Source: an uncultured Gammaproteobacteria bacterium
GTDB lineage: Bacteria; Patescibacteriota; Microgenomatia; 2-02-FULL-39-11
DNA: 64,000 nt
Assembly: GCA_964544585.1 (NCBI GenBank)
Contig: CAZJBV010000002.1
Span: 67,468-131,467, forward strand
Direction: 5' to 3'
The notes below the pieces were generated by a model. The model did not search any database and was not told the DNA's origin. It saw nothing but the letters and a program-made list of their open reading frames with translations. A program made the translations under genes and the position numbers. Shown here one piece after another: positions 2,358-62,829 of the stretch (position 1 is its first letter; every line of letters starts with the position of its first letter).

Positions 2358-4018
2358 TGCAGACGAAGATTCGTAATCCACTTATTGCCACAGCAATTAT
2401 TATATTCATCCTCTTTGGAATTTCATTTATATCAGTGAAAAGTTACTACACCCAAGGTTTACCATATTATGATTCGATCGGCGCATATTGGAACATGTTT
2501 TCAATTATGAACATTACTAGATCCCAGGGATTTATAGCAGGTATAAATCAAGCCACTTTATATCCTCTCTCTTGGTTACAGTCCTTTTTTGCTGTTTTAG
2601 CAGCATTCTTTTTAGAAAAAAATCCACAACAATTAATAATTCTCAATTTTATCTGTCTTTTTATCCTCATTTTTTCATTACATAAAGTAACAAAAAGCCT
2701 TCAATTATCCAATTTTCAATCTTACCTAATTTTCCTCATCCCTCTTATACCAGCATCACTCTTCTGGTGGAAGGGGGGTTATATTGATTTAAGAAGAGAT
2801 GCGAGCTTTGTTACCCTTTTAGCTGCATCATATTTCTTTTTATCCTCATTTCTCTTCAAGCCAAAAGTATCGTCTGGATTAATCTGTGGGATTGTCTTAG
2901 GTCTAACGCAATGGTCACGGGGAAATGCTTTACCTCAAATTATTTTAACAGCGCTTACCGTTTATGGTACGTATTTTACTGATAAAAATATAAGAGCAAA
3001 TTGGCGCGATGTAGTTTCTAAAAGTTCTTTTATTATATTTTCATTCGCTACCCTTGCCATTCCCTTTTATTTATATAATATAGAAATTATTATCCTTCAG
3101 TATAGTAATAATTGGGCGATAAACGGAGATAGAATACGCTCTTTTATTGATTTTCTACCTGCCGGATTAGTATTTATGCTAGGGTATACCTCAAAGGAAA
3201 TTATAATAAGTTTTCTATTTTTCAGCTTAATACTATTCATATTTTTCTATCTTTTTTATAAAAAGAAAGTCACTTTCAATAATAATATTTTTAAACAAAA
3301 ATATTCATTCTATTTTAAATCGGGAGTTCTCTTATATTTATTGATATTTTTCTTTAATGTATTTGTTGTGGGTATTATGAAAAATCTTGGAGACCATCAG
3401 GCATATTTACCATTTTTTCCCTTAATTATAGGCTTATATTCTATATTAGTTTTCCTTGTCGCTAGCATGAAGTTTAAAAAAGCTCAGGAATCACATATTT
3501 TTAAAGTACTACTTATTCTTTCAATGATATTTATAGTAGCAACTACAATTCGCATAAAAGCAAATAAACCTCCCACTGATAAACAGCTTCACGATCAAGC
3601 AAAGCAAATAGTGAGAGATATAGGTAAAGATCTAGGCGGTAGGACGGTCGCCTACCTTTGGCTCGAAGATATAAATGTCCATACCCTAAATTTTTATTTA
3701 ACCCAAAGAGGATTTGAACCTATAAGGACATCATCAAGAATAAGCAAGAATGTAGATATCGAAAATCCCCCCGTCTCTTACATATCAATTGCCGACCAAC
3801 AAAAAGAATTTGCCGAAGGGTTACGCACCAAAGATTTTATAGTCTTTGCCCAAAATACATCTTTATACGAAAATAAAAACGCCTTTTTCTCCATGTTCGT
3901 CTTCGGAAAACCCGTCTTAGATGAGTTGCTGGTTGATGATAATTTTGCCAAATATCATACTTTCACTATTCGAGATACTCCCTTCATAGTTCTGAAAAAT
4001 CAAATAGAAAGAAAATAA
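2357..4018 (+). CDS. polytopic membrane protein of unknown function
   Basis: 553-aa ORF with many hydrophobic segments and a soluble C-terminal region. No motif recognised. Confidence 0.55.
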   Translation: MQTKIRNPLIATAIIIFILFGISFISVKSYYTQGLPYYDSIGAYWNMFSIMNITRSQGFIAGINQATLYPLSWLQSFFAVLAAFFLEKNPQQLIILNFICLFILIFSLHKVTKSLQLSNFQSYLIFLIPLIPASLFWWKGGYIDLRRDASFVTLLAASYFFLSSFLFKPKVSSGLICGIVLGLTQWSRGNALPQIILTALTVYGTYFTDKNIRANWRDVVSKSSFIIFSFATLAIPFYLYNIEIIILQYSNNWAINGDRIRSFIDFLPAGLVFMLGYTSKEIIISFLFFSLILFIFFYLFYKKKVTFNNNIFKQKYSFYFKSGVLLYLLIFFFNVFVVGIMKNLGDHQAYLPFFPLIIGLYSILVFLVASMKFKKAQESHIFKVLLILSMIFIVATTIRIKANKPPTDKQLHDQAKQIVRDIGKDLGGRTVAYLWLEDINVHTLNFYLTQRGFEPIRTSSRISKNVDIENPPVSYISIADQQKEFAEGLRTKDFIVFAQNTSLYENKNAFFSMFVFGKPVLDELLVDDNFAKYHTFTIRDTPFIVLKNQIERK

Positions 4019-6019: not shown

Positions 6020-8566
6020 TTGAAGTATAAAATAATGCAGAGAATTTTAATAGCAACATCTACAGGAGGACATAAAGTAGTAATCGAACTGGAAAGATTA
6101 CTTGCTGTTGCCCTAAAAGAACGTAAGGCAGACGTGCATTTGCTTTTATGTGATAAATTCTTGCCTGCATGTCTTATGGCAGCGGCTCAAGATTTCAAAG
6201 ATCAAAAAGAATATGCAGACTATGGTCCCAGAAAATCATTGTGCGATAGCTGCTACAAATATGGTCTTAGTAAATATGAAAATCTTGGATTGCCCATACA
6301 TCGTTATAGTGAGTTAACCACAGAGAGCGAAAATCAGCAATCGTATAAATTAGCATCCTCCTTACCTGTAGACAAAATCACCAATTTTATGAAAAATGAA
6401 GTAAAAATAGGAGAACACACTACAGCAGGAACTCTAAGATATTTTGCCAAAGGAGACTTAGCAGGCGAAGAATACGGAGAAAAGATTCTTCGGCGATATT
6501 TTCATGCGGGACTTCTTACATATTATGCCATTGAACGTCTAATAAAGATGGTTGATTTTGACGTCACTGTTTTCCATCATGGAATATATATTCCACAGGG
6601 TATTATTGGAGAAGTCTTAAGAAAGAATAAAATAAGAGTCGTAAATTGGAATCCGGCATACAGAAAACGTTGCTTCATATTTAGCCATAACGATACATAC
6701 CACCATACACTTTTAAGTGAACCTACAAATAAATGGGAAAGTATGCGCTGGACTAGAAAAATGGATTCACAGCTAACGGATTACCTCAAAAGTAGACTTG
6801 TAGGAACCAAAGACTGGATTTGGTTTCATGAAAACCCACTTTTTGAAGTCAATGTAATTGAGAAAGAATTAGGTATAGATTTCAAAAAACCCACAATCGG
6901 ACTTCTAACCAACGTCATGTGGGATGCCCAGTTGCACTATAAGTCCAATGCGTTTAAAAACATGATGGAGTGGTTAGTAGCAACAATCAAATATTTTAAA
7001 GAGAGGAAAGACCTCCAACTCGTTATAAGAGTACATCCAGCGGAAGTCAGAGGTACATTACCTTCCCGACAGAAAGTTGGAGACGAATTAAACAGACACT
7101 TTCCCAAACTTCCTCCTAATATTTTTATTATTCCCCCAGAGAGTAATATCAGTACCTATCCTGTAATTTACAACTGCAATGCAGTTTTGATTTATGGGAC
7201 AAAAACAGGTGTTGAATTGACAAGTATGGGAATACCAGTCATCGTCGCCGGAGAAGCATGGATTAGAAATAAAGGCATTACCTACGATGCAAAGAGCCCT
7301 AAAGACTATATAAAAATATTGGCCAAACTACCGTATAAAGCAAAAATGTCAAAGAGTAAAATTTTGAGAGCCAAAAAATATGCTTACCATTTTTTCTTTA
7401 GACGGATGATTCCTTTGACATCAATCGAGGAGAAAGTTGAATGGCCCCATTTTTTAGCTAATATAAGCACGAAGAAGAATTTGCTATACGGCAAAGACAA
7501 GGGCTTAGACACCATCTGTAATGGCATATTGAAAGGAACCGATTTTATATATAAAGCAGAGGAAGAAAAAGATTCTATTTATAAGTCAGGACTACCTAAG
7601 TTAAAAGCTTTTGCGCTTTCTTATCATTTAGATAAAAGTAAATCACACGAGGTGTTAGTGAAAGAACCTTTATCTAAGTATTGCCAGATTTTATTTGAAT
7701 CATCTGATGACCGAAATACTAAACCAAAGTATATAAACAAATCTTTTCTTTCCAGACCGATCATTTTTCACCAAAGGCCACCCCCTTCTGAATTTTTAGA
7801 GCAGGAAAACCTTAAACTTGTATGGATCCCCATGTGGGACCATATTAAAGATTACCCTAATTCTTGGTGGAATAGTTTGCCGAAAAATCTAAGAATAATA
7901 GCTTTCTCAGAAAAAGTATACGAGAAGGCAACCAAGTTTAATATACCATCGCTGCGTGTAAAGTATTATTTAAACCCTCATATAACCCAAAAAGCTTCAT
8001 GGGATCAAGGAAGAATACTTTTCTATTGGAATAGAGTTGGCCTCTTTAATAAAGCGTTTCTGGAAAGATTGTGCCGGGAAATTGCTATCACAAAACTTAT
8101 TTTTCAAAAGGAGATAGATCCTGGAATAAATAGTTATGCATATTTTAATTTGCCATCTAAATTTGGAAAGACTAAAGTAGAAATAATCTCCCGGCATTTA
8201 CCGAAGGAAAAGTATCACCAAAAACTCGAGGAAGCAAATATCTATCTTGCCCCAAGACCGATAGAAGGAGTAGGATTAACTTATCTTGAGGCTCTAGCAC
8301 GTGGGGCAGCAGTCTTAAGCATTGATGCCCCTAGCATGAATGAATATATCACCCATAAAAAAAATGGCTATTTTTTTAAAATAAAACAAAAAAGATGGTG
8401 GAATACTAGAAAAGCTACAGAAATAAATACGAATCAAAATTGGGCAGAATTAAGAAACTTAGATTATGAATCGCTGGGTTTGAACGGACTACATGAACAT
8501 GAAATTGGATTTGAGAGTTGGGTCAAAGATATTCCGAAATATTATAAATTCATTACAGACTGGTAA
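6020..8566 (+). CDS. two-domain glycosyltransferase: N-terminal GT-B domain with HP motif (sialyltransferase/KpsC-like) plus C-terminal GT4-like domain
   Basis: 848 aa. 'LVIRVHPAEV' is an HP motif; the C-terminal 'GVGLTYLEALARGAAVLS' resembles the GT4 donor-binding motif. The ORF begins at TTG 6020; the first ATG is at 6035. Confidence 0.6.
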   Translation: MKYKIMQRILIATSTGGHKVVIELERLLAVALKERKADVHLLLCDKFLPACLMAAAQDFKDQKEYADYGPRKSLCDSCYKYGLSKYENLGLPIHRYSELTTESENQQSYKLASSLPVDKITNFMKNEVKIGEHTTAGTLRYFAKGDLAGEEYGEKILRRYFHAGLLTYYAIERLIKMVDFDVTVFHHGIYIPQGIIGEVLRKNKIRVVNWNPAYRKRCFIFSHNDTYHHTLLSEPTNKWESMRWTRKMDSQLTDYLKSRLVGTKDWIWFHENPLFEVNVIEKELGIDFKKPTIGLLTNVMWDAQLHYKSNAFKNMMEWLVATIKYFKERKDLQLVIRVHPAEVRGTLPSRQKVGDELNRHFPKLPPNIFIIPPESNISTYPVIYNCNAVLIYGTKTGVELTSMGIPVIVAGEAWIRNKGITYDAKSPKDYIKILAKLPYKAKMSKSKILRAKKYAYHFFFRRMIPLTSIEEKVEWPHFLANISTKKNLLYGKDKGLDTICNGILKGTDFIYKAEEEKDSIYKSGLPKLKAFALSYHLDKSKSHEVLVKEPLSKYCQILFESSDDRNTKPKYINKSFLSRPIIFHQRPPPSEFLEQENLKLVWIPMWDHIKDYPNSWWNSLPKNLRIIAFSEKVYEKATKFNIPSLRVKYYLNPHITQKASWDQGRILFYWNRVGLFNKAFLERLCREIAITKLIFQKEIDPGINSYAYFNLPSKFGKTKVEIISRHLPKEKYHQKLEEANIYLAPRPIEGVGLTYLEALARGAAVLSIDAPSMNEYITHKKNGYFFKIKQKRWWNTRKATEINTNQNWAELRNLDYESLGLNGLHEHEIGFESWVKDIPKYYKFITDW

Positions 8567-12262: not shown

Positions 12263-13083
12263 AAAAACCACTTGAATTATTTAAACTCGATGGCAATATA
12301 GCACTGGTTACTGGAGGCCTAGGAAATCTAGGGCCTTATTGGATAAAAGCGTTAAAAGGGGGTGGAGCAAAAGTAGTTTCGATTGATCTGCCGAACATAA
12401 AATCCTCTGACTATTACTTTTCCGTCGATATCACCGATATAAATCGTCTTCATAAATTACATACACAGATATCAAAAGATTTGGGAAGCGTTACAATACT
12501 TGTAAACAATGCCGGCATTGACGCACCACCCTCAAAGCACCTCGAAGGTGGCCGGCTTGCCCTGAGCGCAGTCGAAGGGGACTCCTTCGAGGTGAAGGAA
12601 ACAGGCTATGACTCCCCCGAGGTGAACAGGCTATATAAAAATATGTGGGATGTAAATGTCCAAGGTCTGGTAAATTGCATAGAAGTTTTTTCACCAGATA
12701 TGAAAAAGCAGAAGAAAGGAAGCATTATAAATATTGGCTCTCTCTATGGAGAAAAGTCACCAGACGAAAGATTATATAGCCATCTCGGTTTTGACAAGCC
12801 CTGGGCCTATGGAGCCACAAAAGCAGCGGTCCTTCAAGTTACTCGTCACTACTCCACCCGCCTTGCCAAATATAATATCAGAGTAAATACCTTATCACCG
12901 GGAGGAGTATTTAATAATCAAGATAAAGAATTTGTAAAAAAATATTCACAACACGTTCCCTTAGGCCGAATGGCAGAAAAAGTTACCGACCTTGCCGGCC
13001 CGCTTCTCTTTCTTGCCTCCGATGCATCAATCTATGTTACAGGCATAAATCTTCAAGTTAATGGCGGCTATACAGCTTGGTAA
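12259..13083 (+). CDS. SDR family oxidoreductase carrying an in-frame GC-rich palindromic element insertion
   Basis: 'ALVTGGLGNLG', 'NNAGI' and 'YGATKAAV' are SDR motifs. About 20 extra residues ('PPSKHLEGGRLALSAVEGDSFEV...') between NNAG and the catalytic region are encoded by the GC-rich repeat. Confidence 0.8.
   Translation: MKKPLELFKLDGNIALVTGGLGNLGPYWIKALKGGGAKVVSIDLPNIKSSDYYFSVDITDINRLHKLHTQISKDLGSVTILVNNAGIDAPPSKHLEGGRLALSAVEGDSFEVKETGYDSPEVNRLYKNMWDVNVQGLVNCIEVFSPDMKKQKKGSIINIGSLYGEKSPDERLYSHLGFDKPWAYGATKAAVLQVTRHYSTRLAKYNIRVNTLSPGGVFNNQDKEFVKKYSQHVPLGRMAEKVTDLAGPLLFLASDASIYVTGINLQVNGGYTAW
12538..12624. repeat. GC-rich nested palindromic element C1: arms CACCTCGAAGG/CCTTCGAGGTG plus an extra partial arm, in-frame inside the SDR gene
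   Basis: cacctcgaaggtggccgg...gggactccttcgaggtg at 12538-12594 and actcccccgaggtg at 12611-12624. A local GC spike in an AT-rich gene. Confidence 0.8.
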
Positions 13084-18921: not shown

Positions 18922-19769
18922 TGCCCAAATATTATTCCGACCTTTTTATAAAATCAGGCAAATTTATTTCCGGGAAAATAAAAGCCCCATTTTCGCTTTT
19001 GTTTCATCGCTTCAGAAATGAAATATTCAGAAAATCTCCCTACCATATGAAATATTTTGGTTTCAACTTGTATTATAAAAAGGGTGACGGAGGAATAAAT
19101 CATCTCGCCCGCGGATACTCATACGAACCAGACGTCATAGAGGCAATTATAAAAAATATACGCCCAAACTCTACCATAATCGATGTAGGAAGTAATATCG
19201 GCTTAATTACTCTTTCCGTGTTGCATTATTATCCCACCGCACACTTTCATTGTTTCGAACCATCTGGGTACTCTAATCAAATCTTTCAACAAACAATCTT
19301 GAAAAATAATTTAAACTCTAATATAAGATTGATAAAAAAAGGCCTCTACCACAAATCGGGAATCATTCCATTCTATACACACGGTATTCCTAACGCCCTA
19401 GGCGATGGTATTAAAGATACTAAAAGGGCTGGAATTTCAAAAAAGGCTCCAATCGAAGTAACTACTCTCGATAATTATGTTAAAAAATCTAAAATCCAAA
19501 AGATAGATCTCATCAAAATTGACGTCGAGGGTGCCGAGTTATTTGTCCTAAAAGGAGGAAGAAAATCAATTTTAAAATATCGTCCTCTTATCCTTTTTGA
19601 GGCAAACCCAGTAAACCTTCAAGCATATAATCTGATCCCGGGTGACATCTATCACTTCTTTTCAAAAATTGACTATAAAATCATTAGCCTTTCCGGAGAA
19701 ATATTAGATTTAGAAAAATTTGTAACTATGACCCAAAAAGTGGATAATTACTTGGCTTCTCCCATATGA
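18921..19769 (+). CDS. FkbM family methyltransferase (tandem paralog 2)
   Basis: 'IIDVGSNIGLITL...HCFEPSG' and 'IKIDVEGAELFVL'; paralogous to 18085..18921. Confidence 0.8.
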   Translation: MPKYYSDLFIKSGKFISGKIKAPFSLLFHRFRNEIFRKSPYHMKYFGFNLYYKKGDGGINHLARGYSYEPDVIEAIIKNIRPNSTIIDVGSNIGLITLSVLHYYPTAHFHCFEPSGYSNQIFQQTILKNNLNSNIRLIKKGLYHKSGIIPFYTHGIPNALGDGIKDTKRAGISKKAPIEVTTLDNYVKKSKIQKIDLIKIDVEGAELFVLKGGRKSILKYRPLILFEANPVNLQAYNLIPGDIYHFFSKIDYKIISLSGEILDLEKFVTMTQKVDNYLASPI

Positions 19770-21073
19770 AGGATATAGATATTCTTTGGTTCATCGAACA
19801 TATTGCCCGTGAGTTGGATGTAGCAGTCTTAGCAAGCTTAATTATCAACAAAAAATACGGCCTGACAGTAAAAATAGAACAGATATCAAATCTTAAGAAA
19901 ATAGAAAAGCTTTACAATCCCAAAATTATTCTCCTTCCTTATTGTTATGTTGCCACCGATGGTTATATAGAAAGAATAATTTCGATATGGCCAAAGAGTG
20001 TCTTTATCAATCTTGCTTGGGAGCAAATTTTTTATAATGCCAACAAAATATATAAATTGCCCCGCGACTATTTTGCTCGAAATTGCGTTTATCACCATGC
20101 CTGGAGCAAAACCAGAAAAAAAATACTTAAAAAGCTCGATATTCCAGACAAAAATATTTTTCTAAATGGCCAACCCGCCTATAAATTATATGATGAGCCA
20201 TACAAAAAACTTTTTATCAGTCGTAAAAATCTGGCAGAAAGATATCAATTAGATACTAACAAAACATGGATTTTCTTTCCCGAAAACTACAGTTGGTATT
20301 TCTATTCAAAAGAAACAATCCAAAAGATCATCCAGGATGGTCAAGGAGTAAAAACCATCAGCACTCTAAAAAATTATTGCAAAGACAGCTTTACAATTGC
20401 ACTTGAATGGTTAAACCAGATCGCAAAAAGATATGAAGATACTGTTGAAATCATCCTTCGTCCGCGTCCCTCATTTAGCCAAGAATATTTTTTATGGCAA
20501 GTACAGAAATTAAAACCGTCTCTATCCAAAAATATAAGAGTTATAAAAGATTTTTCCATCAGAGAATGGATTTTAGCAAGCGATATCGTAATTTCATCAT
20601 TTTCAACTTCACTTATCGAAGCCGCCATAGCTAAAAAAACTCTTTATATACTTGAACCTAATCCCATGCCAAATGAATTAATTGCAGAGTGGTATAAATA
20701 TGTCGAGAAAATAAAAAGTCTGAATGGATTATTCTCTATCCTGCCGGCCAGCCTGCCGGTAGGCATGGCAGGCAGGAATAATTACTTAAAGCTTCGTACC
20801 TGGGCACGGTCTAATTTTTATGTAAAAGATGATCCCATCCAAGGACTTGCGGATATTCTTGCAAAAATACCAGAAAAACAACTTCCAGAATTAAAAAATA
20901 CAAAAAGTCTATTCCGTCAAGCACAGAAAAAGGCATTCTCAATATTAAGTAAATTAAAAAAAGCAACAACAACCACGGATGCATATTTTAAATTAGATGA
21001 TGATAAAATCTTTGAGTCAGAATTAAAAGATAAAATGATTCGTTATAAAAACTTTATTGATAAATATCTATGA
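19766..21073 (+). CDS. hypothetical surface-carbohydrate biosynthesis protein (GT-B-like; candidate nonulosonate/ulosonate transferase)
   Basis: 435 aa. The 'IVISSFSTSLIEAAIAKK' region resembles the C-terminal domain of TagF/KpsC-type GT-B transferases. Carries an in-frame GC-rich palindrome at 20741-20776. Confidence 0.5.
   Translation: MKDIDILWFIEHIARELDVAVLASLIINKKYGLTVKIEQISNLKKIEKLYNPKIILLPYCYVATDGYIERIISIWPKSVFINLAWEQIFYNANKIYKLPRDYFARNCVYHHAWSKTRKKILKKLDIPDKNIFLNGQPAYKLYDEPYKKLFISRKNLAERYQLDTNKTWIFFPENYSWYFYSKETIQKIIQDGQGVKTISTLKNYCKDSFTIALEWLNQIAKRYEDTVEIILRPRPSFSQEYFLWQVQKLKPSLSKNIRVIKDFSIREWILASDIVISSFSTSLIEAAIAKKTLYILEPNPMPNELIAEWYKYVEKIKSLNGLFSILPASLPVGMAGRNNYLKLRTWARSNFYVKDDPIQGLADILAKIPEKQLPELKNTKSLFRQAQKKAFSILSKLKKATTTTDAYFKLDDDKIFESELKDKMIRYKNFIDKYL
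20741..20776. repeat. GC-rich palindromic element A1 (core CCTGCCGG..CAGGCAGG), in-frame in hypothetical CDS
   Basis: ctgccggccagcctgccggtaggcatggcaggcagg; encodes 'PASLPVGMAGRN'. Confidence 0.75.
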
Positions 21074-26894: not shown

Positions 26895-28146
26895 GATACT
26901 TATTTTTTCCCCTACAGCCCTTTCTACTTACTATGTTTTTTCCGGAAACATCATCTCTGCCATATTGGCATTTCTATATACTGTCCTCCTTGTTCGCAAC
27001 CTCTCCCTCGCAGACATTGGCTATTTTTCTGCCCTCTGGTCATTTTTGCTTCTTATTGCCGATGTAGCCGAACTTGGCATTGGCACCTCTCTTTCAGCCT
27101 TCGTCCCCATAGCCAAAAGTATAAATGATAGGTTCAATGTAATTAAAACAGCCATGATAATCCAATTTGTTGTAGCTCTATTATTTTCGCTGCCAATATT
27201 TATATTTTCGGATATCATTGCTTCCTTTCTCTTTCATTCGGAGAATTTAAACATACTGGTAAAAGTTACCAGCGTAGGCATTTTTATAGCCGTCATTAAT
27301 TACTTTTATCAATTGGCACTTACATCAGAGGAACGCTTTCTCAAAGTCGCTCTTTTTTCTATTTCCGGAAGCCTGTTTCGCTTAGGGTCTGGTCTAATAC
27401 TCGTCCTGATTTCTCTATTTACTTTAAAAAATGCAGTCATGACACAAGTATTCTCATTAGGCTTATTATTTCTATTAGGAATATTATTGCACCGAAATTC
27501 CATTCTAAAGGGGAAACTTTTACCACTATTTATTAAGAATTTTCTTGCATTTTCTTCATTCCTGGGGATCGCCCGGGGAATGACAGCTTTAGCGTCCCGA
27601 CTTGATGTTCTCATGATTGTGGCAATACGTGGCCCGACAGAAGCAGGCATCTACGCCATTGCCGCAAGAGTAATCTCTCTCTATCCGCTTCTTTCCGGTA
27701 GTTTCAGCTCGGTTCTCGCCCCCAAAATAGCAGCGTTTCGAGAAAAACAGGAGCTCATCAAATTTACTAAAAAAGTTATCCTGGCAACTTTGGGAATAAT
27801 TTTTACCATCATAATTCTCATAATAATAGCCAATCCATTTATGACATTACTCTTTCAGGAAAAGGGAACACAAGCATCTGGCATCTTCCAAGTACTGCTT
27901 ATAAGCATGGTATTCTTTGTCTCCTCAATTCCACCCGTCACATTAGCAGTTTACAGTCTCAAAAAGCCTCATATTTTGACCATCAATAGTTTAATCCAGG
28001 TGACCATAGTATTTTTAGGAAATCTATTCCTCATTCCTCATTTTGGCTATTTTGGCGCCGCCTACTCACTCATCGCGGCTTATGCCATTTCATTAGTTTT
28101 AACCACAGTCTTAACTATTTATTATTTAAATAAAAGATATGGCTAA
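26881..28146 (+). CDS. wzx: oligosaccharide flippase (Wzx, MOP superfamily)
   Basis: 421 aa with about 12 TM segments and Wzx-like topology. Confidence 0.75.
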   Translation: MKRIKILIFSPTALSTYYVFSGNIISAILAFLYTVLLVRNLSLADIGYFSALWSFLLLIADVAELGIGTSLSAFVPIAKSINDRFNVIKTAMIIQFVVALLFSLPIFIFSDIIASFLFHSENLNILVKVTSVGIFIAVINYFYQLALTSEERFLKVALFSISGSLFRLGSGLILVLISLFTLKNAVMTQVFSLGLLFLLGILLHRNSILKGKLLPLFIKNFLAFSSFLGIARGMTALASRLDVLMIVAIRGPTEAGIYAIAARVISLYPLLSGSFSSVLAPKIAAFREKQELIKFTKKVILATLGIIFTIIILIIIANPFMTLLFQEKGTQASGIFQVLLISMVFFVSSIPPVTLAVYSLKKPHILTINSLIQVTIVFLGNLFLIPHFGYFGAAYSLIAAYAISLVLTTVLTIYYLNKRYG

Positions 28147-29026
28147 TCTAAAAATAACAGTTCATATGATAGTCAAAAATGAAGATAGATTCATTTGGTA
28201 TGCGATTAAGTCAGTCTTAGATTATATTGATAAATTATTGATATTTGATACAGGAAGTAAAGATAATACAGTTGAAATAATAAAAAATATAAATTCCCCC
28301 AAAATAGATTTCGAACAAAAAGGCAATGTAAATTCAAAAAAATTAGTAGAATTACGCCAAGAGCAGATAGAAAAGACTAAAACAGACTGGATTTGGATAG
28401 TCGATGGAGATGAAATCTATCCAGATGTAACCATAAAAGAGATATTAAAATATATAAACCAAAATCGCCATATAGGCGGAATCGTCAGGCGCTTCGATCT
28501 ACTCGGGGATATTTATCATTATCAGGATGAAAGCGTAGGTAGTTACCATCTTTTAGGCATGACAGGACATCTCGTACTTCGATGTCTAAACATTAAAAAA
28601 ATTGACGGCCTTCATCTCAAAGGTCTTTACCCAAACGAAGGCTATTATGACAGAAATGACCAAGTACTCATTGATTACCCCCGCAAAGATTTCTTTTTTA
28701 CCAGAAATAGATTATTTCATGCCATGTATTTAGAGAGATCAAGTCTAGGTAGAAATTTATTACAGACGTTACACAGAAGAAAATATAAAATAGAGGAAGG
28801 CAATTATTTTTCCGCAACCGAGGAATTCCCCAATATTTTTTTCCAAAAACATCCCCAACTTGTTTCAGATGTGACGGCAACCCGTGATGTCCGCTACGAT
28901 ATTGCCGCAAAACTAATTACTCCGATAAAAAAACTAAAACGAAATATCTTTAATACACCTGGAAGGTGGCCGGATGCCTGCCTGCCGGCAAGGCAGGGAC
29001 TCCTTCCAGGTGGAAAAAATAAATGA
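28139..29026 (+). CDS. GT2-like glycosyltransferase whose C-terminal tail is encoded by a GC-rich palindromic element
   Basis: 'VHMIVKNEDRFI' and 'DTGSKDNT' in the N-terminal part. The last ~20 codons ('GRWPDACLPARQGLLPGGKNK') are encoded by repeat 28956-29013. Confidence 0.6.
   Translation: MANLKITVHMIVKNEDRFIWYAIKSVLDYIDKLLIFDTGSKDNTVEIIKNINSPKIDFEQKGNVNSKKLVELRQEQIEKTKTDWIWIVDGDEIYPDVTIKEILKYINQNRHIGGIVRRFDLLGDIYHYQDESVGSYHLLGMTGHLVLRCLNIKKIDGLHLKGLYPNEGYYDRNDQVLIDYPRKDFFFTRNRLFHAMYLERSSLGRNLLQTLHRRKYKIEEGNYFSATEEFPNIFFQKHPQLVSDVTATRDVRYDIAAKLITPIKKLKRNIFNTPGRWPDACLPARQGLLPGGKNK
28956..29013. repeat. GC-rich nested palindromic element A2 (outer arms CACCTGGAAGG/CCTTCCAGGTG, inner core CCTGCCTGCCGGCAAGGCAGG), forming the 3' end of a GT2 gene
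   Basis: cacctggaaggtggccggatgcctgcctgccggcaaggcagggactccttccaggtgg. It shares 'gaaggtggccgg' and 'gggactccttc.aggtg' with C1. Confidence 0.85.
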
Positions 29027-30018
29027 AAATAGCCTTTTTAAATATCTACCACGGAATTGTCGAAAGGGGTTCCGAAGTATTTGTTGAAAATTTATCCCAA
29101 AAATTAGCCCAAAATCATACCGTCAGAGTTTTTCATCAAGATATAAATACTCCTATTCGTAAAAGCCAAGATTTTTTATATGATCTTTCAGTATTTTTGT
29201 TCACCCTTAGCTCTCTGCCTCAACTATGGAAAGAAAAATTCGACTGGATCATCCCCATAAACGGACGCCTGCAAGTATTACTCGTAAGAATACTGCGATT
29301 TTTTCGCGGAGGAAAAATTCTTATTTCTGGCCACGCAGGAGTAGGAGCAGAGGATAAATGGAATATTCTAATTGGAAAACCGGATATCTTTGTTGCTCTA
29401 AGCCCGACCGCATCTGCCTGGGCAAAAAAAATAAACTCCCGCACAAAATACATCCCAAACGGCGTAGATATTGAAAATTTCTCGCCAAATGGAAGAAAAG
29501 CAACAATTCCCTTAAAAAAGCCAATAGTTTTAGTTACGAGCGCACTTCTTCCCTATAAAAGAGTCGAATTGACAATTGAAGCCGTTTCCGAGCTTAAAAA
29601 CACTAGCCTTCTGGTAATAGGCGACGGTCCTTTAAAAAATAAAATAGAAAATTTAGGAAACAATAAATTACAAAATCGATTTCTTCTTATCCCTAAAGTT
29701 TCCTACCGAGAAATCCCTTCTTACTATCGATCAGTAGACGTCTTTACTCTTCCAAGTCGCGAGTCCGAAGCCTTTGGTATTGTCTATCTCGAGGCACTGG
29801 CAACAAATATCCCTGTTGTTGCACCAGATGATGAAAATAGAATCAAAATTATAGGAAATGCCGGCATCTTTTGTAATATCGAAAATACAAAGGAGTATAG
29901 TAAAGCTATTGAAAAAGCACTCAATACGAACTGGGCAAATATTCCACGCAGGGAAGCAGAAAAATTTTCCTGGGAAAAAATAGCCAAGAAGTATGAAGAA
30001 ATATTTCTCTCTTATTAA
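29023..30018 (+). CDS. GT4 glycosyltransferase
   Basis: 'ESEAFGIVYLEALATNIPVV' is the GT4 motif. Confidence 0.8.
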   Translation: MKIAFLNIYHGIVERGSEVFVENLSQKLAQNHTVRVFHQDINTPIRKSQDFLYDLSVFLFTLSSLPQLWKEKFDWIIPINGRLQVLLVRILRFFRGGKILISGHAGVGAEDKWNILIGKPDIFVALSPTASAWAKKINSRTKYIPNGVDIENFSPNGRKATIPLKKPIVLVTSALLPYKRVELTIEAVSELKNTSLLVIGDGPLKNKIENLGNNKLQNRFLLIPKVSYREIPSYYRSVDVFTLPSRESEAFGIVYLEALATNIPVVAPDDENRIKIIGNAGIFCNIENTKEYSKAIEKALNTNWANIPRREAEKFSWEKIAKKYEEIFLSY

Positions 30019-44282: not shown

Positions 44283-44296
44283 ATTCATAATTCATA

Positions 44297-44317
44297 CCTG
44301 CCTGACCGGCAGGCAGG
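44297..44317. repeat. GC-rich palindromic element A3 (core only), intergenic, flanked by TTCATAATTCATA direct repeats; possible terminator hairpin
   Basis: cctgcctgaccggcaggcagg, lying between ...attcataattcata and cttcataattcataattc, 15 bp after the stop of the upstream CDS. Confidence 0.75.
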
Positions 44318-44341
44318 CTTCATAATTCATAATTCAATTTT

Positions 44342-45421
44342 ATGCACATAGGCATAGATGGCTACGAAATAAATGCCCACAAATTGGTGGGCGTTGGAGT
44401 CTGGGGGCTAGAAATAATAAAAAAACTATATTGGTTAGATGATCAAAACAGTTATATTATCTATCTGCCATCTTCTCCTCAAAATCTTCCCCCGGAAAGA
44501 ATAAATTGGAAATATCGAATTATTCCCTCTCTCGGATTCTGGACATTTACATCCTTACCATTTGGCATTTGGTCAGGCAAAAAACTTAACGTTTTTTTTA
44601 GCCCCACTCATTACATTCCCAGATTTGTAAATATTCCACGCGTCGTATCTATAATGGATCTGTCTTATCTACACTATCCAGAGATGTTTCTTCCCAAAGA
44701 TTTGTATCAGCTGAAAAACTGGACAGACTATTCAATCAAAAATTCTCAAAAGATAATTACCATTAGCCAGTTTACTAAATCTGAAATAGTAAAATACTAT
44801 AGCGTTTCCCCTGATAAAATTGTTGTTGTTTACCCAGGCTTAAATGAAATTTATCTGAAAAAAAATACCGAAAAACCAATTATTCCAGGCAATTATTTAC
44901 TCTTCATCGGCACCATCCAACCCAGAAAGAATATTGAAAGACTCATTGATGCATTTGCACAAGGCCCCGCCAGGCAGAATTCGAAATTGGTCATTGTAGG
45001 CAAAAAAGGCTGGCTTTATCAAAGCATCTTTGCCAAAGTAAAGAAACTCAATCTTGAAAACAAGGTCCAATTCTTAGACTATATCCCCGAGACTGACATG
45101 CCCAACATTTATCAAAATGCTAAAGCCTTTATCCTACAGAGCTTCTATGAGGGTTTTGGTATTCCTGTAGTTGAAGCTATGGCTTCTGGCATTCCCACAA
45201 TTATTTCAAATACTTCTAGTCTTCCCGAAGTCGGAGGCAAAGCAAGTATTTATGTGGATCCAGACAGTGTAGACTCAATAAAAAATGGTATTATTAAAGC
45301 TCTAACTTTAAAAGACTTCGAAAGAAAAAAACTTATTCAAGCTGGCTTTGCCCAAATCAAAAAATTCTCCTATCGCAAAAGCGCCGAAATTGTACTCAAA
45401 ACCCTAAAAGATATAAAATAA
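44342..45421 (+). CDS. GT4 glycosyltransferase
   Basis: 'FYEGFGIPVVEAMASGIPTI'. Confidence 0.85.
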   Translation: MHIGIDGYEINAHKLVGVGVWGLEIIKKLYWLDDQNSYIIYLPSSPQNLPPERINWKYRIIPSLGFWTFTSLPFGIWSGKKLNVFFSPTHYIPRFVNIPRVVSIMDLSYLHYPEMFLPKDLYQLKNWTDYSIKNSQKIITISQFTKSEIVKYYSVSPDKIVVVYPGLNEIYLKKNTEKPIIPGNYLLFIGTIQPRKNIERLIDAFAQGPARQNSKLVIVGKKGWLYQSIFAKVKKLNLENKVQFLDYIPETDMPNIYQNAKAFILQSFYEGFGIPVVEAMASGIPTIISNTSSLPEVGGKASIYVDPDSVDSIKNGIIKALTLKDFERKKLIQAGFAQIKKFSYRKSAEIVLKTLKDIK

Positions 45422-45440: not shown

Positions 45441-45477
45441 CACCTCCGAGGTGTGCGCATGCACTCCTCGGACGGTG
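45441..45477. repeat. GC-rich palindromic element B1 (CACCTCCGAGGTGTGCGCATGCACTCCTCGGACGGTG), intergenic/5' of the acetyltransferase
   Basis: Near-identical to B2 at 51244-51283, with about 33/37 positions matching. Confidence 0.85.
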
Positions 45478-49900: not shown

Positions 49901-50069
49901 CAAAAAGGGAGCTGACTACTATGTCAGCACCAAATTTGATGACCAGACCCGCGAATTAATATTAGAAGCCCAGAAAAAAACTACCGATAAAAAGCCATAT
50001 AAAATAATTGAATTTACCGACAAATTTGTCATCATCCAGCTTGTTCCAGATAAAGACCTTCCTAAATGA
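46962..50069 (+). CDS. fusion membrane protein: N-terminal O-antigen ligase/polymerase-like (Wzy_C) domain plus C-terminal GT-C (ArnT-like) domain
   Basis: 1035 aa. The 'ASRTSFLAYLAG' region is typical of the Wzy_C/O-antigen ligase family. The C-terminal half has 'DWHSWRQSDTS' and a multi-TM ArnT-like arrangement. Confidence 0.6.
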   Translation: MRKLLSWLDDNLISILAGFLLVFIPLYPKLPLFEALPGYIVRVRLEDFFVFTTAFLWLIWLIRGKISLDQNPIIKWIGIYLAIGILSMVSAIFIIQTVPFEALHIGKMVLHFLRRIEYFSLFFIFYTTIRSMRQVKIYLLLLIAVVVAVTLYGYGQKYLYWPAFSTMNREFSKGWVLYLTAHARVLSTFGGHYDLAAFTMMILIILWSLFLGVKNLLYKALIFLILSGAFWLLILTASRTSFLAYLAGITIMCFLWAFRQGLRWSFLSWIAITFLSIFIMLSFGDLSDRFMKLLKLDERLGGIRTLVLNPFGKPPDDLSALFLENNPATIADVTSKTDQPPSPVRPVDVTEDIPLKIPSASGIVTVKRTYSQNAIMYDLSTGIRFDALWPRAIAGFKRNPILGSGYSTLTKVQVEEFTEAESTDNDFLRSLGETGLLGFIAFYGILISMLVAIWKTFTKVKDPVFYSFIVGFAGLIIGLLVNAAYIDVFEASKVAYAFWALAGITFGGLKVLKKDIQNSNQKPYIPDIHRFQVSAKIKVLNFIKSDVFRLILLLLLAFLLRNYKINMPLADWHSWRQSDTSSVTRDFIKNGINLLYPTYQDLSNVASGKDNLKGLRMVEFPLYNAYATFIDKIFVGWNIEFSGRLASVFASLLSLIFLFKFVRRYLGRTGAFFAALFFAIIPYNIYFSRVILPEPFLVTLSLGFLYYLDRFLFDNVKIFKRFLLLIISLIFLSLALLVKPFAIFMFIPAVYLWYRKYGFSKKFFLGLLVYWLIALLPLWWWRQWISNFPEGVPAYEWLLNGDGIRFKGAFFQWLFAERITKLILGYWGVSFLLLGILVKFPKETNVFYFYLLGMLTYISVVATGNVRHDYYQTFIVPLLCIFLAKGVMFLLSHTAEIFSQTRNLITIILVIAFMEAFGWYQIRDFYNINHPEIVEAGRTLDRLTPQKALVIAPYEGDTAFLYQTGRKGWPIVQDPIDIMVKKGADYYVSTKFDDQTRELILEAQKKTTDKKPYKIIEFTDKFVIIQLVPDKDLPK

Positions 50070-51301
50070 AAATTCTAATGCTCACTCCCTACCTTCCTTA
50101 CCCACTCCTCTCAGGTGGACAAATAAGAACATACAATCTTTTAAAAAATCTTGCCAAAAAGCACGACATCACCCTATTCTCATTTATAAGGCTTGAATCA
50201 GAAAAAAAATATATTCCTGAACTGCTAAAATTTTGCCAAAACGTTAGTACATTTAAACGACGTCCTGCATGGTCACATATAAACATCGCTTTATCTCTCC
50301 TCACCCCATTTCCTTTTTTGGTTTCCATTTATTATTCCCGCACACTACGCCGCGCTATTCAAAAGGAACTTCATAAAAACCATTATCATCTCATCCACTC
50401 CGAAACATTTTATGTCATGCCCAATATTCCTAAAACAACTGTTCCCATCCTTCTTGTGGAACAGACAATTGAATTTCTCGTCTACCAGCATTTCGTAGAA
50501 AATATTAAAATTCCTTTAAACCTCCTCTTATCCATCGACGTTGCCAAAATTCGCTTTTGGGAAAAATATTACTGGCGAAAAGCTGATAAAGTTGTGGCCA
50601 TGTCCAAAGCCGATGCCGACGTCATGGAAAAATTATCTCCTCACTTAGACGTCGATATCGTCCCCAATGGAGTCGACACCGATGAGTTTTTTAAAATCCA
50701 AAAGAAAAAAACGCGGGCTAAAACCATATTATTCGTCGGTAATTTTAAATGGCTACAAAATAAAGAAGCAGTGAAACTTTTAGTTGAAAAGATCTTTTCC
50801 CTGATTCATAAAAAACTACCAGAAGTCAAACTCTGGATAGTAGGCCGGTATCCTCCCTGGGAAATTAAAAAATATGAAAGCGGCAATATAAAAGTTTCAG
50901 ATAATATCGACGACATTAAAATAGCTTATGGTAACTCTGACGTACTTTTGGCCCCCATCTACGGACCGGGTGGCACCCGGTACAAAATTCTCGAGGCCAT
51001 GGCCGCGGGTCTTCCGGTAGTAACTACTACTCGTGGAATAGAAGGTCTCAACGCCAAAGACGGTACAGATGTCTTAGTCCGCGATTCAGTCGAAAGTCTA
51101 GCCAAGGCTACGATTGATGTCCTTATCAAAGAGAATCTTGCAAATAAATTGGCCACAAATGGTAAAAAGCTCATCGCCCAAAATTATGACTGGAAAGAAA
51201 TATCGCAAAAACTTGACAATCTCTACGAAGAAGTCGCCTCAAAACACCTCCGAGGTGTGCGCATGCACTCCTCGGAGGTGGAGGAATCTGGAAAAAGTTG
51301 A
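50066..51301 (+). CDS. GT4 glycosyltransferase with a repeat-encoded C-terminal extension
   Basis: 'GGTRYKILEAMAAGLPVV'. The last ~17 codons ('HLRGVRMHSSEVEESGKS') are encoded by GC-rich repeat B2. Confidence 0.8.
   Translation: MKILMLTPYLPYPLLSGGQIRTYNLLKNLAKKHDITLFSFIRLESEKKYIPELLKFCQNVSTFKRRPAWSHINIALSLLTPFPFLVSIYYSRTLRRAIQKELHKNHYHLIHSETFYVMPNIPKTTVPILLVEQTIEFLVYQHFVENIKIPLNLLLSIDVAKIRFWEKYYWRKADKVVAMSKADADVMEKLSPHLDVDIVPNGVDTDEFFKIQKKKTRAKTILFVGNFKWLQNKEAVKLLVEKIFSLIHKKLPEVKLWIVGRYPPWEIKKYESGNIKVSDNIDDIKIAYGNSDVLLAPIYGPGGTRYKILEAMAAGLPVVTTTRGIEGLNAKDGTDVLVRDSVESLAKATIDVLIKENLANKLATNGKKLIAQNYDWKEISQKLDNLYEEVASKHLRGVRMHSSEVEESGKS
51244..51283. repeat. GC-rich palindromic element B2 (CACCTCCGAGGTGTGCGCATGCACTCCTCGGAGGTGGAGG), forming the 3' end of a GT4 gene
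   Basis: Perfect arms cacctccgagg/cctcggaggtg around gtgtgcgcatgcact; encodes 'HLRGVRMHSSEVEE'. Confidence 0.85.
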
Positions 51302-61917: not shown

Positions 61918-62829
61918 ATGATCCGAAATGAAAACGAATTTCATACTCCCGTCTTACTCTCACAGGTGATTGTCGGCCTCAATATAAAAAAAGGTGGCCT
62001 TTATATAGATGCCACAATCGGAGGGGGAGGTCACACAAGAGAAATATTGCAACTTGAAGGAAAAGTATTAGGCATTGATCAAGATCCAAACGCCGTTGAA
62101 TATGTAAAAGATCATATTCAAAATCCAAATCTCCTCCTCCAAGTGGGCAATTTTAGAGATATAAAAGAAATTGCCCAAAAATTTGGCTTTAATAAAGTAG
62201 ACGGAATTTTATTTGACCTTGGCATATCGAGCTATCAGTTAGACAAGGGTAGTAAGGGATTTTCCTTTCTCAAAGATGAACCGCTCGATATGCGGATGGA
62301 TAAAAGAAGTTGGCCCGTAACAGCTGAGAAAGTGGTAAATAAATATTCTGTGAGTGAGCTTTATGACATATTTACGTTATTTGCTGAGGAAATCGATTCT
62401 CGGGATGTTTCTAAAAATATTGTTCGCGCCCGTAAAATAAAGCCGATAAAAACCACGGCAGATTTAGTTTCGGCCGCAGGTCTGGATCTAGCTAAGATTG
62501 AAGATATCGGCAAAGCTGCGCGCATTTTTCAAGCAGTGAGAATCGAGGTGAACCAGGAGTTAGAAAATTTAAAAAGGGCTATCCCAGAGGCAACGGCTCT
62601 ATTAGTTAGGGGCGGAAGATTGTTATTTATCAGCTTTCATTCCCTGGAAGATAGAATCATCAAGTTACAAATGAGAAAGGCCATGCCTGCCGGCAGGCAG
62701 GGCCTGCCTGCCGGTAGGCAGGAAAAAATTCAGGAACTGACAAAAAAACCAATAGTTCCAGATGAAAAAGAACAAAGGATAAACCCGAGATCAAGATCGG
62801 CCAAATTAAGAATCTATGAGAAAATATAG
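61918..62829 (+). CDS. rsmH: 16S rRNA (cytosine1402-N4)-methyltransferase RsmH, with an in-frame GC-rich palindromic insertion near the C-terminus
   Basis: 'HTPVLL', 'YIDATIGGGGH', 'FDLGISSYQLD' and 'LDMRMD'. The extra 'AMPAGRQGLPAGRQ' is encoded by repeat 62685-62722. Confidence 0.9.
   Translation: MIRNENEFHTPVLLSQVIVGLNIKKGGLYIDATIGGGGHTREILQLEGKVLGIDQDPNAVEYVKDHIQNPNLLLQVGNFRDIKEIAQKFGFNKVDGILFDLGISSYQLDKGSKGFSFLKDEPLDMRMDKRSWPVTAEKVVNKYSVSELYDIFTLFAEEIDSRDVSKNIVRARKIKPIKTTADLVSAAGLDLAKIEDIGKAARIFQAVRIEVNQELENLKRAIPEATALLVRGGRLLFISFHSLEDRIIKLQMRKAMPAGRQGLPAGRQEKIQELTKKPIVPDEKEQRINPRSRSAKLRIYEKI
62685..62722. repeat. GC-rich palindromic element A4 (tandem double core), in-frame in rsmH
   Basis: gcctgccggcaggcagggcctgcctgccggtaggcagg. 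Confidence 0.8.

Follow-up and report, generated by a model that had tools for sequence, protein, structure and literature searches.

Why does the gene of an otherwise conserved enzyme end in a GC-rich palindrome, and how did the palindrome come to be there? The question is raised by A2, a 57-nt nested palindrome that supplies the final codons of a GT2 glycosyltransferase gene in a 64,000-nt stretch of DNA (contig CAZJBV010000002.1, positions 67,468 to 131,467, assembly GCA_964544585.1), here called the window, from an uncultured bacterium that is labelled Gammaproteobacteria and placed by GTDB in the Patescibacteriota. Bacteria of the candidate phyla radiation (CPR) have tiny genomes, and mobile DNA is usually considered scarce in them. 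A2 was probably built by the stepwise, in-frame insertion of selfish mini-palindromes from two unrelated families, tolerated at a gene end in a CPR genome, probably Microgenomates/Gottesmanbacteria-like, of 97% coding density (the value found for the window).

A2 (window 28956-29012, + strand) reads CACCTGGAAGGTGGCCGGATGCCTGCCTGCCGGCAAGGCAGGGACTCCTTCCAGGTG and is made up of a 36-nt hairpin, the host hairpin, and a 21-nt guest, the core. Together they provide 19 codons in frame, with the peptide PGRWPDACLPARQGLLPGG. The parts of the element and the two genes that meet at it are as follows.

28956..28968, + strand: left arm of the A2 host hairpin, CACCTGGAAGGTG, with matches to the arm pattern and to a covariance model
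28969..28976, + strand: 5´ part of the A2 host loop, GCCGGATG
28977..28997, + strand: guest core hairpin, CCTGCCTGCCGGCAAGGCAGG, seated in the apical loop of its host; 21 nt or 7 codons
29000..29012, + strand: right arm of the A2 host hairpin, CTCCTTCCAGGTG, with pattern, alignment and model matches
28139..29026, + strand: coding sequence (CDS) of the GT2 glycosyltransferase, 295 aa (Pfam PF00535 Glycos_transf_2, E = 1e-14)
29023..30018, + strand: CDS of the downstream GT4 glycosyltransferase, whose start overlaps the GT2 stop as ATGA

A second, inner hairpin is enclosed by the outer arms, which form a perfect inverted repeat of 11 bp. The central triplet of the left arm, GGA, has its complement, TCC, in the right arm, and the second base of the right arm gives rise to a T-T mismatch that is conserved in the host hairpin family. 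Copies without a core have a plain loop, GCCGGATGGA or GCCGAATGGA, where A2 has its core-interrupted loop. Folded as RNA, A2 reaches -37 kcal/mol (z = -4.9), and none of 200 shuffled sequences was equally stable. The palindromic elements have a GC content of 0.67-0.70 compared to ~36% (0.36) for the window. Translation of the GT2 CDS ends in ...NIFNTPGRWPDACLPARQGLLPGGKNK before the stop, i.e. NIFNT-PGRWPDACLPARQGLLPGG-KNK, the last ~20 residues being the A2-encoded peptide and KNK. The original prediction, made from the letters of the window, had correctly described A2 as encoding the C-terminal end of this protein and as ending ~10 nt before the next ATG, that of the GT4 gene at 29023. It had also set the start of the element at 28956, as we do, but its end at 29013 takes in one extra G.

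The state of the locus before the arrival of the host hairpin can be seen in related genomes. Two syntenic loci (L124 and L125, with PMT_2, flippase, GT2 and GT4 genes) can be aligned to the window left and right of A2 and have nothing in between. In L124, GT2 and GT4 overlap at stop and start exactly as in the window, without a hairpin. All 16 aligned GT2 homologues, the closest with up to 64% identity, stop ~20 aa earlier, and none of the 119 among the matches listed covers more than 93% of the query. In the proposed order of events, the first step would have placed a 36-nt host hairpin just 5´ of the GT2 stop, where the syntenic orthologues are empty.

The core, in turn, varies within the population. 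The A2 composite is present in the Logan assemblies of four sequencing runs, where three left-hand contigs end in the core and three right-hand contigs begin in it; the core is carried by L127, L129, L130 and L131-133. The right-hand contig L128 (SRR12113383) begins GAAGGTGGCCGAATGGACTCCTTCCAGGTGGAAAAAATAAATG and has the allele ...GGCCGAATGGACTCC..., in which the loop of the host hairpin is the plain GCCGAATGGA and the core is missing. Over the 3,996 nt that follow downstream, the contig matches the window with 0 mismatches. A junction assembled at k = 31 needs k-mers that contain both the plain loop and the unique flank, and L128 is therefore taken as a real allele. The core is polymorphic at the A2 locus in a background that is otherwise identical. 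A second step would then have placed the 21-nt core in the host hairpin, exactly within its apical loop; the alleles demonstrate that the two are separable, and the direction of the change is what we infer.

Both components have relatives elsewhere, and these define two families. The host hairpin has the consensus CACCTnnnAGGTG-loop-CTCCTn´n´n´AGGTG and occurs in four copies in the window. A generic arm pattern that left both central triplets unconstrained, scanned over one genome per species, found at least 117 loci. Among the matches listed, 104 are at low-GC loci, and in 89 of these the triplets are perfectly complementary, compared to 1/64 expected, with 16 different triplet types. Matches to the arm pattern in high-GC genomes have non-complementary triplets, which marks them as chance matches. 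In the alignment of host hairpins 99.1% of the cells are paired and covariation is 0.251 versus 0.060 in shuffled alignments, with 0 of 500 shuffles as high; covariation is informative at the triplets only, as the remaining stem positions were fixed by the search pattern. The hairpins are 33-37 nt long, usually 34-37 nt, and ~75 of the 89 have short plain loops, mostly of 8-11 nt, such as GGCTTTGA or GCCGAATGGA, with the T-T mismatch conserved beside the loop. One of them, CACCTGGAAGGTGGCCGGATGGACTCCTTCCAGGTG in L089, is A2 exactly minus its 21-nt core, and a further host-family copy (L053 169-206) has the core or a core variant nested in its loop. The flanks share A or C at -1, G or A at +1 and A at +2.

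About half of the host hairpins in other genomes are inside long open reading frames (ORFs). They have either orientation there, make use of all five open frames and encode unrelated 12-aa peptides (e.g. TSKVGFDSFEV, HLEGVKAHLRGV and PRRSQSPPSRW), and every intragenic copy examined is open in the frame of its host gene. The use of both orientations and all five frames argues against a function of the peptide and for an identity at the level of nucleic acid. The carriers are low-GC metagenome-assembled genomes (MAGs) of Microgenomates, Omnitrophota and the like, among them MAGs of Daviesbacteria, Gottesmanbacteria, Curtissbacteria, Levybacteria, Berkelbacteria and Omnitrophota, and several that are labelled "uncultured Gammaproteobacteria". 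The loci from third-party annotation (TPA) MAGs with this last label (L007, L009, L010, L015, L016, L019 and others) have 29-43% GC, and the PurL gene of L057, labelled Gammaproteobacteria, aligns closely with PurL genes of Patescibacteria MAGs; the Gammaproteobacteria labels of such hairpin-bearing loci look unreliable. The gene for PurL (FGAM synthase) carries a host hairpin at the same position in four MAGs (L082 3713-3748; L057 2433-2466, - strand; L038 721-754; L070 421-480). Loop type and orientation vary among the four copies, and one of the sites holds two of them. This suggests that insertion has a hotspot here or that an old copy has been flipping and changing without moving. The region of PurL at this site varies in length among solved PurL structures.

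The core family, CCTGCCTGCCGG(C/T)(A)AGGCAGG, is found alone in L009, L041, L064, L072, L083, L089 and L102, and the 21-mers in L041 and L083 are identical to the A2 core and flanked by unrelated sequence. In L104 the core (6998-7018, with a variant at 7356-7372) is nested in a different hairpin family, CACACCGGGAG...CTCCCGGTGTG. Viral contigs of IMG/VR have 95 copies of the 20/21-nt core palindrome on 80 loci. These contigs (L142-L221) have a median GC content of 0.64 and up to four copies per stretch (L187), and by a rough estimate ~20 of the 95 could be due to chance in GC-rich DNA. The abundance of the core on contigs of this composition indicates that it is not confined to AT-rich CPR genomes. 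On one viral contig (L191 2239-2330) ARAGORN calls a 92-nt tRNA-Met in which the core palindrome (2284-2303) is the long variable arm, and in L210 (~495-555) a tRNA-like D-loop sequence holds a core between its GGTA and GAGC, with no tRNA called. Some core-only copies are flanked by perfect direct repeats, of 14 nt in L083 (~2093-2141) and L156 (~8382-8429), 13 nt in the window (44284-44331), 8 nt in L149 (~1652-1687) and 7 nt in L041 (~1160-1194) and L180 (~3384-3417). Overall such repeats vary from 0-1 to 14 nt, with none at the A2 core, and duplications of variable length do not fit a classical transposase.

The arrangement of A2 itself is not a widespread unit. The exact composite pattern GAAGGTGGCCGG-N(5-35)-GGGACTCCTTC has 0 matches in 185,579 species genomes and 3 in JGI metagenome contigs, all of them stemless chance hits in GC-rich coding DNA. 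Arms and core occur independently of each other, in the window as well as in other genomes; they belong to two unrelated families whose members are met on their own far more often than combined, and A2 is a derived nested composite and no progenitor.

A scan for GC-rich islands combined with a scan for hairpins gave seven sites in the window, A2 and the following six.

12538..12594, + strand: C1, a host hairpin with the triplet CGA/TCG and another guest, CTTGCCCTGAGCGCAGTCGAAGG, in frame within an SDR gene
20740..20776, + strand: compound palindrome of the core family, in frame within a 435-aa ORF (19766-21073)
44297..44317, - strand: core-only copy in a 59-nt intergenic spacer, flanked by the direct repeat TTCATAATTCATA
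45441..45477, + strand: B1, a hairpin of the host family that has a 1-nt bulge and whose loop is the plain TGCGCATGCA, located in the spacer 3´ of a GT4 gene (44342-45421)
51245..51280, + strand: B2, a 36-nt host-family hairpin with the loop TGCGCATGCA, part of the C-terminal tail of a GT4 gene (50066-51301)
62686..62722, + strand: two tandem cores of 16 and 20 nt, in frame in rsmH

The similarity among these copies is far above chance and is no by-product of GC richness. At up to 3 mismatches, 2 matches to the core 21-mer are present in the window versus 0.00 expected; the outer 11-mer with up to 1 mismatch has 4 versus 0.44, and the two-arm pattern CACCTNNNAGGTG-N(4-34)-CTCCTNNNAGGTG has 3 versus 0.00. 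The kinship of arms and of cores asserted in the original prediction thus stands up to shuffled controls. A covariance model built from copies in other genomes detected B2 (E = 6e-12), B1 (9.5e-9), C1 (5.9e-5) and A2 (1.6e-4), all four best on the + strand, and no further locus in the window; it aligned A2 and C1 with an insertion of 21-23 nt in the loop. The core of A2 is, as had been proposed, common to the core-only copies at 20740-20776, 44297-44317 and 62686-62722. Its outer arms had been equated with those of C1 and of B1/B2; this holds for C1, which has the length of A2 and arms that differ by one compensatory G-C to C-G exchange, and B1 and B2 share the arms more loosely. The guest of C1 (...CCCTGAGCGCAGTCGAAGGG...) is unrelated to the A2 core and has relatives elsewhere, both alone and nested.

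Several observations concern the remaining copies and their surroundings. To the right of C1 (window 12580-12636), the right arm and its flank are tandemly duplicated in diverged form, GACTCCTTCGAGGTGAAGGAAACAGGCTAT followed by GACTCCCCCGAGGTGAACAGGCTAT, encoding DSFEVKETGY and DSPEVNRLY, and this lengthens the insert in the SDR protein further. The two cores in rsmH jointly form a 17-bp stem (-39.4 kcal/mol), and the palindrome at 20740-20776 is likewise compound; the genes that hold them in frame are conserved. The core at 44297 is present in both Logan samples that cover its spacer, and C1 and B2 are also found in Logan contigs. No empty alleles of C1, B1, B2 or the 44297 core were seen in the Logan assemblies, every sample that covers these sites carrying the elements. 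Almost the entire window is a single + strand glycan-biosynthesis cluster (GT2, GT4, PMT_2, FkbM methyltransferases, NeuB, flippase and a Wzy-like gene), followed at its 3´ side by recO, an aminoacyl-tRNA synthetase gene and then the mraZ-rsmH cell-division genes.

The two pieces of A2 correspond to 12 and 7 codons, and the reading frame is kept in each state of the locus. An AlphaFold2 (AF2) model of the GT2 protein, built with an alignment of homologues, shows a confident GT2 fold, with a mean predicted local distance difference test (pLDDT) score of 87.6 and its last helix at residues 251-271, and residues 276-295 score below 50. The A2-encoded tail is thus predicted to be disordered and looks dispensable, and the consequence of the two insertions would be a 19-residue addition, disordered by this prediction, to an otherwise conserved enzyme. 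Both pieces are open in the frame used, and the tail would be translated by read-through of the ribosome. The other intragenic copies affect their proteins in a comparable manner. Compared with Thermus RsmH, the tandem cores in rsmH add an insert of 14 aa where the protein varies in length, and the RsmH protein with the insert is identical in three Logan assemblies. C1 and the neighbouring partial duplication give an excess of ~24 aa over PDB entry 6uh2, located after the NNAGI motif, and the B2-encoded tail lies past the region of PimA homology, which ends at residue ~395 of the GT4 protein.

Host hairpin and core appear to behave as selfish DNA. Copies would persist where they do least harm, at gene ends, in short spacers, in variable loops of proteins and in the loops of other hairpins. 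The likeliest means of spread would be an activity directed at single-stranded hairpins and encoded elsewhere in the genome, such as an HUH enzyme resembling those of IS200/IS605 or of repetitive extragenic palindromic (REP) sequences and their REP-associated tyrosine transposases (RAYTs). Alternatively, template switching from one hairpin to another may produce new copies, or gene conversion may do so. By any of these routes, spread would depend on the formation of hairpins. As RNA, A2 is a very stable hairpin at the junction of GT2 and GT4, where it may also influence the stability of the operon mRNA or translational coupling.

A number of points weigh against an origin by selfish insertion. 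No transposase, RAYT or nuclease was found among the ~49 window ORFs scanned against Pfam, a search that covers 64 kb only. No target-site duplication was seen at the host hairpins, neither at the window copies nor at the 89 in other genomes, and the classical mark of transposition is thus missing. Strong covariation and enrichment at gene ends are equally expected of a functional hairpin. The core-less allele at A2 is known from one Logan contig (k = 31), within its first ~40 nt, and also differs by one A/G in the loop, which makes gene conversion or precise deletion as possible as insertion. As to the protein, the low pLDDT of the tail is partly forced, as no homologue covers it, and that ribosomes read through the 19 residues is something we infer only.

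One intriguing possibility, which we put forward tentatively and would not yet favour, is that these palindromes represent an undescribed class of ultra-small (~20-36 nt) hairpin mobile elements that are currently active in CPR bacteria, Omnitrophota and some phage-like contigs, landing preferentially in single-stranded or loop-forming DNA and spreading in a non-canonical manner. Their targets would be the loops of other hairpins, the variable regions of tRNAs and DNA that encodes loops or termini of proteins. The variable repeats of 0-14 nt that flank cores speak for template switching or repair-mediated copying over a classical transposase. If this is true, active elements continually add short peptides to proteins in genomes almost without non-coding space.

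A different view of the same data is that the palindrome is a functional cis-acting RNA or DNA hairpin kept by selection at gene boundaries, its coding role being incidental. It could stabilise or process the mRNA of the polycistronic glycan cluster, adjust the translational coupling of GT2 and GT4 across the ATGA overlap, or provide a binding site for a protein, and such a role is compatible with a selfish origin followed by co-option. The data can be explained without it and we regard it as rather unlikely, though the stability of the A2 fold and the co-variation of the arms across genomes speak for it. Furthermore, 4 of the 7 window sites are at most 45 nt from a stop codon, a zone that makes up 7.5% of the window (P ~9e-4), the four host-family copies are all oriented as the genes, and the 3´ arm of A2 is the strongest match to the anti-Shine-Dalgarno (anti-SD) sequence upstream of any window gene. 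However, members of the host family occur in other genomes in the middle of long ORFs for housekeeping enzymes and in both orientations, the syntenic orthologues manage the same GT2-GT4 overlap without it, and the presence of the core varies between otherwise identical strains. Enrichment at gene ends is also what purifying selection would produce in a genome that is 97% coding.

More specific roles of this kind were considered. Sequestration or donation of an SD sequence for GT4 by the CAGGUGG 3´ arm (-7.0 kcal/mol) was rejected as a primary role; most window genes are without an SD-like motif, which leaves sequestration little to act upon. In other genomes, genes downstream of a host hairpin have their own SD after the element. 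An intrinsic terminator was rejected as well, with 0 terminator-like sites in 28500-29500 and A2 followed by GAAAAAATAA, a GC-rich hairpin without a run of T. Rfam gave 0 matches at the gathering threshold for the whole window, and around A2 and B2 only hits to unrelated families far below threshold. Neither Rfam nor the papers searched, by topic and with the literal sequences and peptides, contained a description of the host hairpin or core elements.

The original prediction saw in A2 a master copy that unites all elements into one family, of which the core-only copies would be internal fragments; carried through, this reading makes fragments of the arm-only copies too. A2 is indeed the sole copy in the window that joins both types of sequence. 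Nevertheless, a master element is highly improbable in view of the two separate families. Arm-only copies are complete closed hairpins with conserved short loops of their own and are the majority form across genomes (the ~75 of 89 with plain loops), C1 has the same arms around an unrelated guest, the exact composite was met only as chance matches while each module alone is frequent, and a core-less allele exists at the A2 locus itself. That allele, and the identical 21-mers amid unrelated flanks in L041 and L083, also contradict the idea that core-only copies are internal fragments. The other possibility offered at the time, a separable hairpin module, is borne out by the L089 copy that equals A2 minus the core, by the different guest in C1 and by the core-less L128.

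Equally hard to uphold is the proposal that the GT2 tail is an acquired functional peptide, e.g. a tag for localisation or interaction, with the palindromic DNA as a secondary feature. The insertion is in frame and free of stops, and similar peptides (PGRWPNGLLPG, HLEGGRMDSFQV) do recur in other proteins. But the family as a whole yields unrelated peptides from all five open frames and both orientations, elements are also found in non-coding spacers, the core can form the variable arm of a tRNA, and no homologue has the tail, for which disorder is predicted.

An artefact of assembly or sequencing, or a chance GC-rich palindrome, can practically be dismissed: palindromes do break de Bruijn assemblies, and Logan k = 31 contigs end inside A2, B1, B2 and C1 (window 28977/28991, ~45470, 51247 and ~12569-12599; L127-L133, L135-L136, L227-L228 and L230-L232), but the same A2 sequence is reached from both sides in several runs, the family is present in MAGs of many unrelated studies and shuffled controls give 0 matches.

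If stepwise insertion is the correct explanation, hairpin repeats of 21-36 nt can colonise genomes that are 97% coding by entering genes in frame and by entering one another. The main interest is in the hairpin families and their polymorphism, above the single A2 locus. For protein evolution they would be a source of short insertions and C-terminal extensions, in housekeeping enzymes such as RsmH as well. They also matter for assembly and annotation, as the palindromes fragment short-read contigs at gene ends and shorten gene calls; the breakage of contigs within the palindrome explains why the GT2 protein is missing from the exact-match protein index. Recurring "motifs" such as PAGRQ, PGRW and HLEGG, produced by the elements, are no protein domains.

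Comparison with known systems reveals partial likenesses to several. MITEs, short for miniature inverted-repeat transposable elements, are non-autonomous, have terminal inverted repeats and occasionally form intragenic in-frame fusions (PMC10969869, PMC2759123). The arms of the present hairpins are inverted repeats, as in MITEs, but MITEs such as Correia, ERIC and RUP are usually 50-500 bp long and have target-site duplications of fixed length and a recognisable parent insertion sequence (IS), whereas the host hairpin has no duplication, the repeats around cores vary from 0-1 to 14 nt and no parent IS is known. REP sequences, organised in bacterial interspersed mosaic elements (BIMEs) and mobilised by RAYTs, are closer in size and form, being imperfect GC-rich palindromes of 20-40 nt in many copies in which a conserved mismatch, T-T in the present case, distinguishes the strands. 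Overlapping inverted pairs, as known for REPs, are present in L009, L028, L070 and L073, and REPs can stabilise mRNA. Yet REPs are extragenic, whereas A2, C1, B2 and the copies in rsmH and ORF 19766-21073 are within CDSs. REPs also carry a conserved 5´ GTAG, whereas the host hairpins start with CACCT and have no conserved GTAG in the flanks of the 89 copies, and their partner RAYT, a Y1 HUH enzyme, has no match among the ~49 window ORFs scanned against Pfam.

Insertion into genes is the hallmark of Rickettsia palindromic elements (RPEs), which enter unrelated protein genes in frame and are translated as extra segments (PMC10969869). As with RPEs, palindromes are found here in a reduced AT-rich genome and in frame, in genes for GT2, GT4, SDR and RsmH. 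RPEs are ~100-150 bp long, have a conserved peptide per family and are restricted to Rickettsia. The present elements have unrelated sequences, measure 21-36 nt (57 nt when nested), use any open frame and are spread over MAGs of CPR bacteria and Omnitrophota as well as viral contigs.

The GC clusters of yeast mitochondria are polymorphic, some of them being inserted in frame in var1, and fuse to form compound clusters (PMC8811140). Like these clusters, including those in var1 and the byp elements of Magnusiomyces, the elements described here are short GC-rich palindromes scattered in an AT-rich genome, and parallels exist there for the nesting seen in A2 and C1, for the tandem arrangement of cores in rsmH and for the presence or absence of the core at A2. 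The differences are that GC clusters are organellar and typically have AG/TAG terminal repeats, whereas the present elements are on a bacterial chromosome, with rsmH, mraZ and recO, and lack such repeats. Moreover, some GC clusters and byp elements are bypassed in translation, whereas the intragenic copies examined here are open in frame and give no sign of bypass. On balance, the elements appear to resemble the GC clusters of yeast mitochondria more closely than RPEs. They would provide a bacterial counterpart to both, in which the mechanism of insertion could be studied.

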